The notes beneath the pieces are model-generated. The model did no database searches, was not told where the DNA came from, and saw nothing but the letters and a program-made list of their open reading frames with translations. From NCBI GenBank assembly GCA_035935465.1, contig DASYXA010000089.1, positions 9,692-73,691 on the forward strand: a stretch of 64,000 bases of DNA. Reading direction: 5' to 3'. The stretch is from Candidatus Limnocylindria bacterium. Its GTDB lineage: Bacteria; Chloroflexota; Limnocylindria; P2-11E. Made by a program: the position numbers and the translations under genes. This document shows, piece after piece, positions 4,745 through 10,846 of this stretch (positions are counted from its first letter, which is position 1; the number at the start of each line of letters is the position of its first letter).

Positions 4745-5764
4745 CTAGTGGACCGGGACGAGGCTCTTCTTGAAGAAGTCGAAGTGCTCCAGGGCGAGTC
4801 CCGTGCCCTTGGCGACGCAGTACAGCGGGTTGTCCGCGGCGTAGCACGCGACGCCGGTCACCTGCGTCAGGAGCTTGTCCATGTTGCGCAGCAGGGCGCC
4901 ACCGCCGGAGAGGACCATGCCCTTGTCGATGATGTCGGAAGCGAGCTCCGGCGGCGTCTCCTCGAGCACGTTCTTCACCGACGACACGATCTGCTGGAGC
5001 ACCGGCTCCATGGCCTCGGTGATCTCGTTGCTCCCGATGGTGATCGTCCGGGGCAGGCCGGCGATGAGATCGCGGCCGCGGACCTCCATGCTGAGCTCGG
5101 GGTCCATCGGCAGCGCGGAGCCGATCTGGATCTTCACGTCCTCGGCGGTGCGCTCGCCGATCATGAGGTTGTACCGCTTGCGCACGAAGTTCGCGATCGC
5201 TTCGTCGAGCCGGTTGCCGGCGGCGCGCACGCTCTTGCTGACGACGATGCCGCCGAGCGAGATGACCGCGATCTCGGCGGTGCCGCCGCCGATGTCGATG
5301 ATCATGTTGCCGCTCGGCCCCGAGATCGGCAGGTTCGCGCCGATCGCCGCCGCGAGGGGCTCTTCGATGAGATAGGCCTCGCGCGCGCCGGCGCGCAACG
5401 CCGCGTCCTTCACCGCGCGCCGCTCGACGCTCGTGACGCCGGACGGGACGCAGATCATGAGCTCGGGATGGAACACGCGGATCCGCCCGCTCACCTTGTT
5501 GATGAAGTACTCGAGCATCCGCTCGGTGATGACGTAATCGGCGATCACGCCGTCGCGCATCGGGCGAAGCGCCGTGATGCTGCCGGGGGTCCGGCCGAGC
5601 ATCATCCGAGCCTCTTCGCCGACGGCGACGATGCGCGGGCGATTGCCGTTGTCGTCGTGCGCGATCGCCACGACGGACGGCTCCGTGAGCACGATCCCCT
5701 TGCCGCGGACGTACACGATGACGTTGGCGGTCCCGAGGTCGATGCCGATCTGGCGAGCGAACAA
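4745..5764 (-). CDS. mreB: Rod-shape-determining actin homologue MreB
   Basis: 339-aa product (M)[18 protein letters not shown]...[16 protein letters not shown]...[19 protein letters not shown] start at 5762-5764 with an AAAGGGA Shine-Dalgarno about 8 nt upstream. Confidence 0.9.
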
Positions 5765-5834
5765 GCGTTATCCCTTTCACGTCCGGAACGAGGTGCGGGA
5801 ACGTCAGTCTACGCGGGGTCCGGGGCGCAGCGGG

Positions 5835-7007
5835 CTACGCCGGCGCCTGCCCGGTGCCATTCGGTCCGCTCGAGGCGGACACGCGACCGCCAAGCATGAC
5901 CGCCGCCGCGAGCAGCAGCAGCGCGAGCTGCGGCGCGGTCGTCTGCCACGTCGGATACACACCGAAGAACGTGCTCTCGGGGATCGGACCCGGGGTCACC
6001 GGTACGACGCCGGCGACCTGGAGCGCGTGGATCCCGGTCCCGATGAATTTGAACGCGAGGTAGTAGACGAGCGTTCCGGCGACCAGGAAGAACGGCCGGA
6101 TCGGCAAGCGCAGCCCGAACACGAGCATCGCGACACCGATGAGGGTCAGGCCGCCGGCACCGAGGGCCAGTCCGAGCGCGAGGTCGCCCAACGAGATCGA
6201 GGGCGCGATGCCGAGATAGAAGAGCACCGTCTCGGCTCCTTCGCGGAAGACGGCGAGGAACGAGATCAGCGCGAGTGACACCAGGCTGTTCCGCGCGAGC
6301 GCGGACGAGCTCTTGTCGCGGATGTAGCGCTGCCACGCGCCCAGGCTGGATTTCGAGTGAAGCCAATAGCTCATGTACAGGAGCATCACCGCGGCGAAGA
6401 GCCCGACGACCCCTTCGACCACCTCGCGGTTCGTGCCGCCGGTCTGCGCGAATACCAGATTGACGACCACCGCGACGACGACGCTGAGCCCGACACCCGC
6501 GGCGCCGCCGGCCCACACCCAGATCGCCTTGGCGGCGTTGCCGGTCTTGGCGAGGAACGCCAGCAGCGCCGCCACGACGAGCAGCGCCTCGAGCCCCTCG
6601 CGGAGCAGGATGACCGCGGCATCGAACACGCCGTAGCTGGTCGCGTCGAGGAATGGCGCGAGCTCGGCCTTCATCCGCTCGATGACCCCGCGCGCCTTCG
6701 CCGGATCCGGCGGTGCGCCGGTCAGGAGCGCGGTCGCGAGGGCCATGTCGTTCTCGACGTCCACATAGGCCTGCGGCGAGCGTGTCTTCACCAGGCCTTC
6801 GACATCGACCCAGTCGTGCTGGAACGCCTTGACCGCCGCCGCGGCGGCAGGCAGGTCATTCGCCGCGAGCCGTTCCAGAGCCCGGTCCAGATGGGCCACC
6901 GCGTCGCGCATCGTCGGCGTCGTGTCGGCGGCGGCCGGCCGGGCGAGCGGCCCCCCGAGCACGGCGACGAGCGCCGCGGCGCCGAAGACGATCCGGGCGG
7001 CGGTCAC
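5835..7007 (-). CDS. FTR1-family high-affinity iron permease (EfeU-like) with an N-terminal about 150-aa periplasmic domain
   Basis: Two RExxE motifs (LREGLEA and FREGAE) sit in a 7-TM core. GTG start at 7005-7007 overlaps the TGA of the upstream lipoprotein gene as GTGA. The signal-peptide-like N-terminus reads VTAARIVFGAAALVAVLGGPLARPAAA. Confidence 0.8.
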   Translation of the reverse strand: MTAARIVFGAAALVAVLGGPLARPAAADTTPTMRDAVAHLDRALERLAANDLPAAAAAVKAFQHDWVDVEGLVKTRSPQAYVDVENDMALATALLTGAPPDPAKARGVIERMKAELAPFLDATSYGVFDAAVILLREGLEALLVVAALLAFLAKTGNAAKAIWVWAGGAAGVGLSVVVAVVVNLVFAQTGGTNREVVEGVVGLFAAVMLLYMSYWLHSKSSLGAWQRYIRDKSSSALARNSLVSLALISFLAVFREGAETVLFYLGIAPSISLGDLALGLALGAGGLTLIGVAMLVFGLRLPIRPFFLVAGTLVYYLAFKFIGTGIHALQVAGVVPVTPGPIPESTFFGVYPTWQTTAPQLALLLLAAAVMLGGRVSASSGPNGTGQAPA

Positions 7008-7402
7008 TTCAGGGTCGCGACGACGTCATCGACGACGGAGTCGAGCTGCTCGAGCGCGTCGATCGCCTTCTTCGGGTCGGGCGTCGCGGGCACGGTCAGC
7101 ACCGCCTGCACGTCGGTGATGCCGCTCTCGATCTTGGCGTACCCGTCCTTGGTCTTCGCCTTGACGCCGTCCTCGATCGCGGCCCAGCCGGCCTGGAAGC
7201 GCTGGAACGCGGCCTGCGCGCCCGGAATGTCGTTCGCTTTGAGCCGCGCCACCGCGTCATCGAGCTCCCTGGTCAGGGCCGTCAGCGCCGCCGGGCCGGT
7301 CGTGGCCGACCCGCCGACCGACGCGCCACCGCCGCAGGCCGCAAGGAGCAGCATCGCGACCAGGACGAGGGCCGAGATGCGCGTCAGAGCGGAGCGGTCC
7401 AT
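7004..7402 (-). CDS. Small secreted lipoprotein, paralogue of the N-terminal domain of the adjacent FTR1 permease
   Basis: 132-aa product with a lipobox (LLLAAC). The sequence TRELDDAVARLKANDIPGAQAAFQRFQAGWAAIEDGVKAK aligns with AHLDRALERLAANDLPAAAAAVKAFQHDWVDVEGLVKTR of the permease. ATG verified at 7400-7402. Confidence 0.65.
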   Translation of the reverse strand: MDRSALTRISALVLVAMLLLAACGGGASVGGSATTGPAALTALTRELDDAVARLKANDIPGAQAAFQRFQAGWAAIEDGVKAKTKDGYAKIESGITDVQAVLTVPATPDPKKAIDALEQLDSVVDDVVATLK

Positions 7403-7427
7403 AGTTCTCCCGAGCGCGGAGCGTCAC

Positions 7428-7461
7428 TTAGGCTTCCCTAATGTGCGTTAGGGCAACCTAA
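7428..7461. promoter_or_regulatory. Two tandem TTAGG-N4-CCTAA palindromes (iron-box-like end pentamers) in the divergent permease-operon / ideR promoter region
   Basis: TTAGGcttcCCTAA at 7428-7441 and TTAGGgcaaCCTAA at 7448-7461, 20 bp centre to centre. They lie between the lipoprotein ATG (7402) and the repressor ATG (7487). The terminal pentamers match the DtxR/IdeR iron box TTAGG...CCTAA but the spacing is shorter. Confidence 0.5.
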
Positions 7462-7486
7462 CAAATTCCGACTCAGCAGGTCAAGA

Positions 7487-8128
7487 ATGGCGTCGAATGC
7501 TGTCGAGGAGTACCTCCAAGCCGTCTACACGCTGGCCGACGAAAGCGGCCACGTCGTTTCGGCCCGGCTGGCCGAATTCCTTGGCTTTTCCGCGCCGGCG
7601 GTGTCCGAGATGATCCACCGGATGGAGCGCGACGGGCTGGTGTCGCTCGATGGTCATAAAGAAGTGCATCTGACCAAGACGGGGAAGACCCAGGCGGATT
7701 CGATCGTCAGGCGGCACCGGCTGGCCGAACGATTCCTGGTCGAGGTCCTCGGGTTCGAGTGGTGGAAGACCCACGAAGAGGCCGAGCGCCTCGAGCACGC
7801 GATGTCGCCGGAGATGGAGGCGCGGATGGTGCGCGTGCTCGGCGATCCGCAGACCTGCCCGCACGGCAATCCGATGCCCGGCGTCGCGCCGACGCCGACG
7901 CGGCCGCTCGAGACGCTGTCGCGCGGCGAGCGCGCCGCGGTCATGCGCATCCCCGACCAGTTCGAGCACGAGCCCGGGTTCCTCGAGTACCTCGACTCCC
8001 AGGGCGTCCGTCCGGGCGTCGTCATCGAGCTCGTTGAGCGCGGCCCGGCGCTGCTCCGCGTCTCGATCGACGGCGCGATCAGATCCCTGCGACCCGATTG
8101 CGGTCAGAAAGTGTGGCTGGCGGCGTGA
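7487..8128 (+). CDS. ideR: DtxR/IdeR-family iron-dependent transcriptional repressor with a C-terminal FeoA/SH3-like domain
   Basis: 213-aa product MASNAVEEYLQAVYTLADESGHVVSARLAEFLGFSAPAVSEMIHRMERDGLV with an HTH, a metal-binding region (HEEAERLEH and CPHG), and an SH3-like tail. Confidence 0.85.
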   Translation: MASNAVEEYLQAVYTLADESGHVVSARLAEFLGFSAPAVSEMIHRMERDGLVSLDGHKEVHLTKTGKTQADSIVRRHRLAERFLVEVLGFEWWKTHEEAERLEHAMSPEMEARMVRVLGDPQTCPHGNPMPGVAPTPTRPLETLSRGERAAVMRIPDQFEHEPGFLEYLDSQGVRPGVVIELVERGPALLRVSIDGAIRSLRPDCGQKVWLAA

Positions 8129-8133
8129 GCGAG

Positions 8134-8790
8134 ATGGTCATCTTCGTGCGTCAGGGCTCCGAGGGCTACTGGCTCGGCGACGTGCCCGCGTTCCCCGGCT
8201 GCAACGCGTCAGGCACGACGCGCGACGAAGCGATCGCCAACACCCGCACGGCGTTCCGGGCGTACCGCGAGCTCCTCGAAGCGCGCGGCGTCTCGACCGA
8301 GCAGGTGAAGGACATCGATCCGGCGACGCTGACGGTCGAGAACGCGCCGCCGTCGGGCATGCTTCCCGGCGACGACAGGCCGCTCGAGGAGCACGAGCTC
8401 CGCGACTTCCTCCATCAGTTCGAGGCATCGCGCGCCGCGCTCATCAGCCTGATGAAGGAGCTCTCGCCCGATCAGCTGGAGCAGAAGCCGACCGAGACGA
8501 TCTGGAGCGTGCGCGAGACGCTCGAGCACATGCTGACGACCGACATCACGCTCCTCGCGCGCCTGGAGAAGTGGCCGGCGAATCCGTTCGCCGCGCTCCA
8601 GGCGGTGCACCGGCTCGCGTTCCAGCGGTTCAGCGTGATGGAGCCCGGCGATTGGGTCGACCACACGATCATGGGCCGCCGCTGGACGACGCGCCGCGTG
8701 ATGCGCCGGCTCCTCGAGCACGAGTACGAGCACTACGGTCAGATCAAGGAGATCATGGCCGCGCAGAGCGGCGACCGGCCGCCTGAGTAG
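8134..8790 (+). CDS. HicB-like (UPF0150) N-terminal domain fused to a DinB_2/YfiT-like metal-dependent hydrolase-like domain
   Basis: N-terminal MVIFVRQGSEGYWLGDVPAFPGCNASGTTRDEAIANTRTAFRAYRE, then C-terminal ...RRLLEHEYEHYGQIKEIM with the HxxxH-GQ DinB motif. ATG at 8134-8136, 5 nt after the ideR stop. An upstream GTG alternative would overlap ideR. Confidence 0.6.
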   Translation: MVIFVRQGSEGYWLGDVPAFPGCNASGTTRDEAIANTRTAFRAYRELLEARGVSTEQVKDIDPATLTVENAPPSGMLPGDDRPLEEHELRDFLHQFEASRAALISLMKELSPDQLEQKPTETIWSVRETLEHMLTTDITLLARLEKWPANPFAALQAVHRLAFQRFSVMEPGDWVDHTIMGRRWTTRRVMRRLLEHEYEHYGQIKEIMAAQSGDRPPE

Positions 8791-9280: not shown

Positions 9281-10846
9281 ATGCGCACCCGCCGCGCCTT
9301 CCTCGCATCGGCGGGCGCGGCGATCATCGGCTGCGCGACGCCCGCGGCCCTCCCCGCTCCGAGCCCGAGCCCGGCGCCGCCCGGCGCGACGCCGACGCCC
9401 CCGCCGGTGCGCACCACGTCGCCGGCACCGGGACCGCCCGACTGGAGCGCGCTCGGCGACGAGCTGCGCGGCACGCTCGTGCGGCCGAACGACGCCGCGT
9501 ACGACGCCGCGCGTCTCCTCTACAACACGCGCTTCGACGGGCTGCGGCCGCAGGCGATCGCGCGCTGCGCGTCGGTCGCCGACGTGCAGGCTTGCGTCCG
9601 CTTCGCGAGGCGCAGCGCGGTCGCGATCACGCCGCGCTCGGGCGGCCACAGCTACGGCGGCTGGTCGAGCGGCCCGGGCCTGGTCGTCGACCTCGGCGGG
9701 CTCTCGGCGATCGACGTCCAGGGCGAGCGCGCCGCCATCGGCGCGGGCGCGCGGCTCGCCGACGCGTACGCGGCCGTCGCCGCGCAGGGCCGCGGCATCG
9801 CCGCCGGCAGCTGCCCGACCGTCGGGTTCGCCGGGCTGTCCCTCGGCGGCGGGCTCGGCGTCCTCTCGCGGGCCTGGGGTCTGACCTGCGACAGCGTCAC
9901 GAGCATCGACCTCGTGACCGCGGACGGGACCGCGCGAACGTGCGACGCGCTGCGCGATCCCGAGCTGTTCTGGGCACTCCGGGGCGGCGGCGGCGGGAAC
10001 TTCGGGGTCGTGACGTCATTCACGCTGCGCACGCGGCCGTCCGTTCCGCTCGCGATCGCGTTCGTGACCTGGCCGTGGGCCCGCGCCGCTGCCATCCTGC
10101 GGGCCTGGCAGTCGTGGATCGCCGCGCTGCCCGACGGGGTCTGGTCGAACGTGCACCTCGACGCGGCGACCGGGCCCGAGCCGACGCTCCTCGTCCACGC
10201 CGTCGCGACCGAGGACGCCGCGGCGCTGCGTTCGCAGCTCGACCGGCTCGTCAGCGCCGCCGGCAGCGCACCGGACAGCCGCACGGCGTTCACCCGCCCC
10301 TATGCCGAGGCGATGCTGCTCGAGGGCGGTTGCGCGCAGCTCTCGCTCGCGCAGTGCCACCTCGAGGGCACGTCGCCGGAGGGCCGGCTGGGGCGCGAGA
10401 CCTACGCCGCGAAATCGGCGATCGCGGCTACGCCGCTCTCGACCGCCGCGATCGACGCGATCGTCGCGGGGCTCGAGGGGCTGCAGGCGTTGCCGAACGC
10501 CGGCGCGGGCTCGGTGCTGATCGACGCGATGGGCGGCGCGATCGCGCGGCACGCACCGGACGCGACGGCGTTCCCGCACCGCAACGCGTTCGCGACGCTC
10601 CAATTCGTGGCCAGCTGGGACGCGGGCGCGCCGGCGGCGATCGCCGACGCGTCGCTCGCCTGGCTGCGGAGCGTCTACGCGACGGCGCGGCCGCTCATCG
10701 GGTCAGGCGCATATGTGAACTACGCCGATCCGGACCTCGCCGACTGGCAGGAGGCCTACTACGGCACGAACTACGCGCGCCTGCAGCGCGTGCGCGCGAT
10801 CTACGACCCCGATCGGCTGTTCGCCTTCCCGCAGGCCGTGGGCTAA
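9281..10846 (+). CDS. Secreted FAD-linked oxidase (PCMH / berberine-bridge-enzyme-like), Tat-signal lipoprotein
   Basis: MRTRRAFLASAGAAIIGCATP has an RR motif and a lipobox. FAD-binding PCMH domain (ITPRSGGHSYGG; BBE-like C-terminus YVNYADPDL). ATG verified at 9281. Confidence 0.8.
   Translation: MRTRRAFLASAGAAIIGCATPAALPAPSPSPAPPGATPTPPPVRTTSPAPGPPDWSALGDELRGTLVRPNDAAYDAARLLYNTRFDGLRPQAIARCASVADVQACVRFARRSAVAITPRSGGHSYGGWSSGPGLVVDLGGLSAIDVQGERAAIGAGARLADAYAAVAAQGRGIAAGSCPTVGFAGLSLGGGLGVLSRAWGLTCDSVTSIDLVTADGTARTCDALRDPELFWALRGGGGGNFGVVTSFTLRTRPSVPLAIAFVTWPWARAAAILRAWQSWIAALPDGVWSNVHLDAATGPEPTLLVHAVATEDAAALRSQLDRLVSAAGSAPDSRTAFTRPYAEAMLLEGGCAQLSLAQCHLEGTSPEGRLGRETYAAKSAIAATPLSTAAIDAIVAGLEGLQALPNAGAGSVLIDAMGGAIARHAPDATAFPHRNAFATLQFVASWDAGAPAAIADASLAWLRSVYATARPLIGSGAYVNYADPDLADWQEAYYGTNYARLQRVRAIYDPDRLFAFPQAVG

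Follow-up and report, generated by a model that had tools for sequence, protein, structure and literature searches.

The DNA analysed here is a 64,000-nucleotide (nt) stretch (positions 9,692 to 73,691 of contig DASYXA010000089.1, assembly GCA_035935465.1; hereafter the window) from a soil Chloroflexota genome, i.e., a Candidatus Limnocylindria metagenome-assembled genome (MAG), an annotation carried by an exact database match to one of the window proteins. It encodes an FTR1 permease with an N-terminal four-helix bundle that is predicted to lie outside the cytoplasm, preceded by a lipoprotein that is a free-standing copy of the same bundle. While the transporter is of the known FTR1 kind, it is well supported that the bundle is an uncharacterised and widespread accessory module of such permeases, which the window holds in a minimal split form lacking EfeO and EfeB. 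With moderate confidence, the two genes can be taken as one operon for FTR1-type metal uptake, most likely of iron. Its features are as follows (aa, amino acids; HMM, hidden Markov model; pLDDT, predicted local distance difference test; TM, transmembrane segment):

7004..7402, minus strand: lipoprotein gene (132 aa), with signal peptide, lipobox and one distal-type four-helix bundle (from the open reading frame list and the sequence).
7334..7402, minus strand: signal peptide and lipobox of the lipoprotein (aa 1–23, LLAAC, Cys23), read from the sequence.
7007..7297, minus strand: bundle domain of the lipoprotein (aa 36–132; family HMM E 1.8e-29; pLDDT 93–98).
7127..7186, minus strand: lipoprotein signature W73-x3-E77…Y88-x3-E92, at the end of helix 2 and the start of helix 3.
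7004..7007, minus strand: GTGA start/stop overlap, in which the GTG start of the permease gene (7007–7005) runs over the TGA stop of the lipoprotein gene (7006–7004).
5835..7007, minus strand: FTR1 permease gene (390 aa), encoding a signal peptide followed by one bundle of the proximal type and the FTR1 core.
6927..7007, minus strand: signal peptide of the permease (aa 1–27, ending …ARPAAA|D; hydrophobic segment aa 1–19).
6642..6926, minus strand: N-terminal bundle of the permease (aa 28–122; family HMM E 1.6e-28), aligning with the membrane-proximal copy of two-copy FTR1 proteins.
6753..6812, minus strand: signature W66, E70, Y81 and E85 of the permease bundle (from the sequence).
5892..6635, minus strand: FTR1 membrane core (aa 125–372; TM1 starting near aa 125), from Pfam FTR1, TIGR00145 and hydropathy.
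6588..6602, minus strand: REGLE motif in TM1 (aa 136–140), within a hydrophobic segment.
6231..6245, minus strand: REGAE motif in TM4 (aa 255–259), within a hydrophobic segment.

The paralogy of the lipoprotein and the permease N-terminus, already proposed in the initial annotation of this locus, was borne out by BLASTP (36% identity over 111 aa, E 6e-9) and by a shared family profile, and on this comparison is far beyond chance. The soluble domain at the permease N-terminus proposed there was likewise recovered, although it measures ca. 95 aa (aa 28–122, behind the 27-aa signal peptide) instead of ca. 150 aa, and its description as periplasmic should read extracytoplasmic, the contig stemming from a Chloroflexota MAG. 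As anticipated, the fold is all-helical: the AlphaFold2 model of the lipoprotein is an up-down four-helix bundle (helices 37–55, 59–83, 85–102 and 110–131; pLDDT >90). Across 361 distinct domain instances, four residues are almost invariant (in lipoprotein numbering, W73 in 100%, and E77, Y88 and E92 in 94% each); this W/E/Y/E signature is identical in both window paralogues, where the signature residues are also the single Trp and single Tyr of each domain. The expected lack of Cys, His or Met clusters was confirmed as well, since the mature lipoprotein contains none of these residues and the fused bundle contains two His and three Met, none of which is conserved. A P19 or cupredoxin identity, which the initial annotation had also discounted, was rejected given the all-alpha models and the absence of Cys, His and Met from the mature lipoprotein.

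Widespread and uncurated, the bundle domain accompanies FTR1 permeases across many bacteria as a partner. A profile built from the window copies and their orthologues retrieved 594 clusters (E<1e-3) from a set of 1.84 billion representatives. Among the best 150 family matches, the FTR1-fused form carried two copies in 40 proteins, three in 14 and four in one, while the other form comprised secreted proteins with one to four copies and without RExxE motifs. Tandem arrays of two to four copies on FTR1 were found in Bacillus, Paenibacillus, Streptococcus, cyanobacterial and Chloroflexota relatives, and every stand-alone copy for which contig context was examined adjoins a bundle-carrying FTR1 gene. 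In three proteins (P0023, 844 aa; P0043, 549 aa; L022:581-3220), the reading frame of the FTR1 core runs on into a lipoprotein-type signal peptide (…AVLLVLGGC…), after which more bundles follow; by their sequences, these read as natural fusions of a permease with its downstream bundle lipoprotein, in which the signal peptide apparently serves as an eighth membrane helix. No curated family in Pfam or NCBIfam matched the bundle domain at threshold, and no description of the bundle was found in the published work consulted on EfeUOB, FepABC or YwbLMN, on N-terminal domains of FTR1/EfeU, on DUF4363 or on YwbL, in keeping with the earlier suggestion of an undescribed accessory domain.

The genomic context of the bundle was examined in 80 loci from a one-genome-per-species scan. 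They represent the best 80 hits of a query containing the N-domain, which biases the sample in favour of bundle carriers. They stem from Chloroflexota, Cyanobacteria, Bacillota (Bacillus, Neobacillus, Paenibacillus, Brevibacillus, Lysinibacillus, Streptococcus and Gemella), Leptospiraceae, Leptotrichia, Pasteurellaceae, Moraxella and Helicobacter apodemus, and in all 80 the FTR1 permease carries two to four bundles. Neighbouring genes of the M75 family (EfeO-like) and the DyP family (EfeB-like) were confirmed with Pfam in sampled loci, and HMMs built from those were used to classify all 80. A solo bundle protein was present in none of the 54 loci with adjacent EfeO-like M75 and DyP genes, and in 14 of the 26 loci without adjacent M75 or DyP (Fisher's exact p 6e-9, kinship ignored). 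A lipobox was found in 12 of 15 solo bundle proteins. No homologues of M75, DyP or multicopper oxidase are encoded within the 64-kb window itself.

In these loci, solo bundles occur only where M75 and DyP are absent, and the free lipoprotein thus occupies the genomic niche of EfeO/EfeB. In contrast, fused bundles do not occupy that niche, as they normally stand alongside EfeO and EfeB. The earlier proposal that the module replaces EfeO thus holds for the free lipoprotein (14/26 versus 0/54 loci) and fails for the fused bundles, which coexist with EfeO/EfeB in 54 of the 80 loci, within operons of the fepABC/efeUOB type. Seven of these 54 M75/DyP loci even have a bundle fused N-terminally to the M75 domain itself, yielding bundle+M75 EfeO-like lipoproteins (L029:9135-10301, L019, L032, L046, L048, L067 and L068), and the NCBIfam EfeO model covers only aa 137–385 of such a lipoprotein. 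In proteobacterial EfeO, a cupredoxin domain stands at the place held by the bundle in these proteins. We take the three genes of L029 (498, 388 and 419 aa) to correspond to ywbL, ywbM and ywbN, the order and sizes of which they appear to fit. A cyanobacterial locus (L012:95-2606, from an Iningainema sp. MAG) presents a Fet3/Ftr1-like pairing, with a two-bundle FTR1 gene beside a two-domain multicopper oxidase (Cu-oxidase_3 and Cu-oxidase_2); it also encodes a 452-aa lipoprotein of which the last 95 aa are a bundle copy.

The two window copies are of different subtypes. In two-copy permeases, the membrane-proximal copy carries W-P-x-V-E-G and the distal copy W-x-x-I-E-D, and separate HMMs were built for both. 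The lipoprotein domain scored 89.6 bits with the distal HMM and 60.7 bits with the proximal HMM, while the fused permease domain scored 78.9 and 109.2 bits, respectively. By HMM score, 128 of 142 stand-alone copies are of the distal type, and the gene order of lipoprotein followed by permease mirrors the domain order of the fused proteins. Taken at the sequence level, the window arrangement can be read as a two-copy permease split by fission, or as the ancestral unfused state. As two to four tandem copies are the usual state, the window holds a reduced or split version.

The permease itself bears out the earlier assignment as an FTR1 protein with two RExxE motifs (REGLE and REGAE). Pfam FTR1 (PF03239) matches aa 128–330 (94 bits versus a cut-off of 25.3, E 1.3e-26), and the R, E, G and E residues of both motifs are invariant across 18 relatives; a looser third motif, REVVE, is located at aa 194. 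Since the permease scores under the NCBIfam equivalog cut-offs (159 bits and E 1.4e-46 with TIGR00145, cut-off 303.8 bits; 117 versus 255 bits with the EfeU equivalog NF041756), its membership of EfeU/Ftr1 holds at family level only. No match to FTR1/EfeU sequences was found in the solved-structure library that was searched. Hydropathy indicated six clear hydrophobic segments and one weaker segment (aa ~305–330). The signal cleavage site is predicted from an AxA pattern, and the signal peptide, together with the secreted paralogue, suggests that the permease N-terminus lies outside.

The 132-aa protein carries a bacterial lipoprotein signal, and its lipidation is predicted: the N-terminus (MDRSALTRISALVLVAMLLLAAC) fits the lipobox pattern [LVI][ASTVI][GAS]C, its hydrophobic segment spans aa 9–27, and Cys23 is kept in nine orthologues. 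Lipoprotein orthologues share 65–80% identity. A search of the lipoprotein alone against PDB sequences returned a chance match to XseB only. The coupling of both genes through GTGA, as noted initially, was confirmed at 7007..7004, and a 1- or 4-nt gene overlap is also kept in the orthologous metagenome contigs L001–L004.

The relation of the bundle to the imelysin (M75) fold of EfeO was scrutinized as well. At E<=1, neither window protein matched Pfam Peptidase_M75 (PF09375), and only 5 of 97 relatives did so, at E 0.031 or worse. HHalign of the bundle family against 53 M75 domains from the loci yielded a score of 31.2, with P 1.5e-4 and a probability of 52%, in an alignment that spans 90 columns of M75 bundle 1. 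The controls scored lower, at 19.1 for reversed M75, 14.2 for DyP and 12.5 for the FTR1 membrane region. At this 52% probability, the alignment sets W73 on the Tyr and E77 on the second Glu of YERIEP (site IV), and Y88-x3-E92 on F-H-x-x-E, i.e., the HxxE motif (site III). A YERIEP-type acidic motif and HxxE are among the proposed metal sites in EfeM (PMC9174327), and imelysin is thought to derive from a duplicated four-helix bundle (PMC3143127). In addition, the family HMM weakly touches the M75 start in the bundle-M75 fusions (i-E 0.011–0.12). At the GxHxxE motif, however, the aligned lipoprotein reads G-Y-A-K-I-E and the permease A-Y-V-D-V-E, so that the His is absent, and the GEEDRY loop is absent from the bundle domain as well. 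The family profile gave nothing significant against PDB sequences (best cytochrome b562, E 0.018; EfeM, E 0.52). An artificial one-chain model with two bundles, made with natural tandem proteins as alignment, reached a mean pLDDT of 94.6 and a predicted template modelling score (pTM) of 0.62, and aligned to imelysins over one bundle only. Because the bundle also occurs fused next to a complete M75 domain, it constitutes a module separate from M75. The bundle is not a member of M75. The match to an EfeO, EfeM or imelysin fold that the initial annotation had named as its own refutation was thus absent from the Pfam M75 search and reached a probability of 52% with HHalign; a distant common origin with one imelysin bundle is possible.

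A further relation was found with DUF4363 (PF14276), a family without assigned function. Weak matches to it occurred in 47 of 97 diverse family members (best E 1.2e-7), and one EfeO-linked copy reached 27.0 bits versus a cut-off of 27.5, while neither window copy matched at E<=0.1. These weak matches of relatives suggest a link at superfamily level, and the bundle family and DUF4363 probably belong to the same superfamily. The likeness to cytochrome b562 and PsbQ bundles lies mainly in a shared helix-1 'aGD..A' pattern and implies no functional link. Cytochrome b562-like haem binding was rejected for want of a conserved Met or His, and a PsbQ relation was rejected because the NCBIfam match covers the signal peptide only.

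The operon is preceded by a divergent regulator gene and two palindromes:

7487..8128, plus strand: DtxR/MntR-family regulator gene (213 aa; helix-turn-helix, metal-binding/dimerisation domain and FeoA/SH3-like domain).
7448..7461, no strand assigned: palindrome 1, TTAGGTTGCCCTAA (TTAGG-N4-CCTAA), candidate DtxR/IdeR-type single-dimer operator.
7428..7441, no strand assigned: palindrome 2, TTAGGGAAGCCTAA, second candidate TTAGG-N4-CCTAA site.

All three domains of the regulator (PF01325, PF02742 and PF04023, i.e., Fe_dep_repress, Fe_dep_repr_C and FeoA) scored above threshold, and its best solved relative is IdeR (7b1v, E 4e-38). In NCBIfam, it scored 147.6 bits with DtxR and 129 bits with Thermus MntR, both under cut-off. 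A DtxR-family regulator is also divergent in L001–L005 and L043, divergent and truncated in L008, and located upstream on the same strand in L023. The window regulator has Glu (E8 and E100) at the positions of IdeR Met10 and Cys102 and keeps H77, E81, H96, E103 and H104; E8 and E100 are conserved in its orthologues. Judged by its residues, the regulator combines MntR-like ligands with an IdeR-like, SH3-containing scaffold. Met10 and Cys102, as sulfur ligands, raise the Fe(II) selectivity of IdeR, while in MntR proteins the two positions are taken by Asp/Asn and Glu (PMC10317159).

Both palindromes (14 bp each) lie in the 84-nt spacer between the lipoprotein and regulator genes, with their starts 20 bp apart, and within the first 16 kb of the window the exact pattern was found only in this spacer. 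The pair is conserved in L001–L005, where the starts are 23 bp apart, and in L001 and L002 the palindromes are retained while their flanks vary. Other Chloroflexota loci have similar palindromes ahead of bundle-FTR1 genes, and the geometry of palindrome 1 corresponds to half of the IdeR box TTAGGTTAGSCTAACCTAA (PMC10317159). A consensus promoter/terminator scan of 5600–7700 gave no match; on reading the spacer by eye, a putative –35 element TTGACC (7484..7479) and a putative –10 element overlapping palindrome 1 were noted. The divergent DtxR-family regulator would probably repress the operon via the two TTAGG-N4-CCTAA palindromes. Since no Rfam family (at gathering threshold) was found in the whole 64-kb window, which is also free of tRNA genes, no riboswitch is expected upstream.

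Among the relatives, nearly all Bacillota loci have a Fur box (TGATAATNATTATCA, 0–2 mismatches) within ~70 nt of the first gene, and such boxes also front solo-bundle-type operons. YwbLMN of B. subtilis, a related system, is required for iron acquisition (PMC3068169). Iron control of the window locus would follow by analogy with these relatives, with manganese as a live alternative because of the Glu residues at the Met10 and Cys102 positions of the regulator.

Taken together, and with about as much confidence as reservation, we read the system as one in which the lipoprotein captures metal and hands it to the fused bundle and from there to the RExxE pore. The last helix of the fused bundle enters TM1, which carries the first RExxE motif, via ~10 residues (…LAPFLDATSYGVFDAAVILLREGLE), and this short link would place the bundle directly over the pore mouth. 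As the helix 2–3 hairpin points the same way as the C-terminus, the W73/E77/Y88/E92 cluster would face the membrane, and the lipoprotein, with its N-terminal lipid and 12-residue linker, would have the same orientation as the fused bundle. In each bundle, the Glu/Glu/Tyr cluster at the membrane-facing end would bind metal with hard oxygen ligands. The distal-type lipoprotein would thereby capture metal and pass it to the proximal bundle of the permease over the pore mouth, which in turn would feed the RExxE motifs; in systems without EfeO/EfeB, the free bundle lipoprotein would take the role of EfeO. More tentatively, the bundle may be an unrecognised metal-relay module in general, forming chains of one to four copies, fused or lipid-anchored, that capture iron for the RExxE pore. 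Some FTR1 systems, including this one, might then work without an oxidase, EfeO or P19, and the module might be an overlooked working part of Bacillus EfeU/EfeO and of streptococcal and staphylococcal FepC-type transporters.

Several points weigh against this reading. The cluster was placed solely by the helix boundaries and topology of the models, and two Glu and one Tyr are a thin ligand set that could instead make structural inter-helix contacts. The absence of M75 and DyP was assessed within the window and within ±8 kb of the related loci, and the neighbourhood statistics take each locus as independent, without regard for kinship. Moreover, the fused bundles coexist with EfeO/EfeB in most relatives and may thus serve for partner docking only, while the Glu pair of the regulator follows the MntR pattern and not that of the iron-selective IdeR subgroup.

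In a rather unlikely alternative, the bundles are a scaffold, i.e., a rigid stalk or docking platform for EfeO, EfeB or other bundles, or a device for oligomerisation or gating, with a purely structural W/E/Y/E signature. A copy number varying from one to four is what would be expected of a spacer, the fold is generic, its matches to PsbQ, FAT domains, cytochrome b562 and designed bundles being no worse than those to anything related to iron, the bundles lack His or Cys ligands, and the 54 loci that pair fused bundles with a full EfeO/EfeB set are already supplied with metal binding and oxidation. Nevertheless, a scaffold does not account for solo bundle lipoproteins occurring exactly where EfeO/EfeB are missing. 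Two near-invariant Glu in solvent-accessible flanking positions of otherwise very divergent copies would also be unusual for a pure spacer, and the profile alignment sets precisely E77 and E92 on glutamates of the M75 metal sites. That same alignment, with its lower-scoring controls, the weak overlap of the family HMM with the M75 start and the presumed origin of imelysin by bundle duplication (PMC3143127) could also mean that the bundle is a diverged half of the M75 fold, so that the lipoprotein and the fused copy rebuild an EfeO-like protein and the system is an ordinary EfeU-EfeO pair. We consider this quite unlikely in view of the missing Pfam M75 match in the window proteins and its rarity among relatives, the E-value of 0.52 for EfeM, the absence of both the HxxE His and the GEEDRY loop, and the presence of the bundle beside a complete M75 domain in one protein.

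The remaining alternatives concern the metal and its oxidation. An import of manganese, or of Fe(II)/Mn(II) without oxidation, instead of Fe(III), with the regulator acting as an MntR-type manganese sensor, would also account for a system that does without an oxidase partner, and the window indeed lacks DyP, M75 and multicopper oxidase genes. The regulator residues E8, H77, E100, E103 and H104 match D8, H77, E99, E102 and H103 of B. subtilis MntR, the E8/E100 pair is kept in orthologues, a second FTR1-linked regulator (L043) likewise has Glu at the Met10 position, and the DtxR and Thermus MntR scores in NCBIfam are similar. On the other hand, both RExxE motifs that typify iron permeases are retained in the FTR1 core, the homologous solo-bundle operons in Bacillota have Fur boxes and not MntR boxes, and the palindromes resemble IdeR half-boxes. 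To our knowledge, no member of the FTR1 family is a known manganese importer, and the ligands of DtxR proteins are an unreliable guide to their selectivity beyond the studied clades; on balance, manganese import appears unlikely. FTR1 permeases are classically oxidase-dependent, and with no oxidase gene nearby the bundles could themselves be the missing oxidase, converting Fe(II) to Fe(III) at a carboxylate-bridged, ferroxidase-like site as in ferritin-like bundles. This seems very improbable, as two conserved Glu and no His per bundle fall far short of a di-iron centre, most relatives retain the DyP peroxidase, and one cyanobacterial locus retains a multicopper oxidase.

With regard to the surroundings of the operon, mreB (4745–5764, minus strand; Pfam MreB_Mbl E 2e-142) lies 70 nt downstream of the permease gene in the same orientation, an order common to L001–L003, and nothing resembling a terminator was found in the gap. 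On the other side, a gene for a 230-aa DinB_2-domain protein with a weak HicB-like N-terminus (8098–8790, plus strand) overlaps the 3′ end of the regulator gene by 31 nt, and a DinB_2 gene holds the equivalent position in L001–L005. The GC content is ~68–76% across the first 14 kb of the window.

The bundle is compact and highly conserved, and it is physically joined to the permeases of a large clade that includes those of Bacillus, Paenibacillus and oral streptococci. The window presents its minimal form, which, with its four nearly invariant residues, offers a simple system for questions on metal relay by bundles and on FTR1 transport without an oxidase. If the MntR-like regulator truly controls the operon, the question of non-iron substrates of FTR1 arises as well.

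Compared to known systems, the locus resembles EfeUOB/YwbLMN of Bacillus subtilis and FepABC of Staphylococcus aureus in combining an FTR1 permease that has two RExxE motifs with a lipoprotein partner outside the cytoplasm, and it differs from them by its lack of M75 (EfeO) and DyP (EfeB) genes. Those operons are iron-regulated, whereas the regulator in the window is of the DtxR type and not Fur. The Bacillus, Paenibacillus, Streptococcus and Lysinibacillus relatives form M75-DyP-FTR1 or FTR1-M75-DyP operons behind Fur boxes and have the same N-terminal bundles; in contrast to such relatives, the partner in the window is a single 95-aa bundle and the permease carries one bundle instead of two to three. 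With EfeO, EfeM and Algp7, the window lipoprotein shares an all-helical, extracytoplasmic architecture of four-helix bundles, proposed carboxylate-rich metal sites and an FTR1 partner, although these proteins comprise two bundles in a V-shape of ~250 aa and the lipoprotein one bundle of 95 aa. Finally, P19/FetP with cFtr1/FetM, FtrABCD and yeast Fet3-Ftr1 likewise pair an FTR1 permease with an extracytoplasmic metal-handling partner encoded next to it. However, the P19, cupredoxin and multicopper oxidase partners are beta-rich copper proteins with Cys, His and Met ligands, whereas the partner in the window is all-alpha and has none of these.

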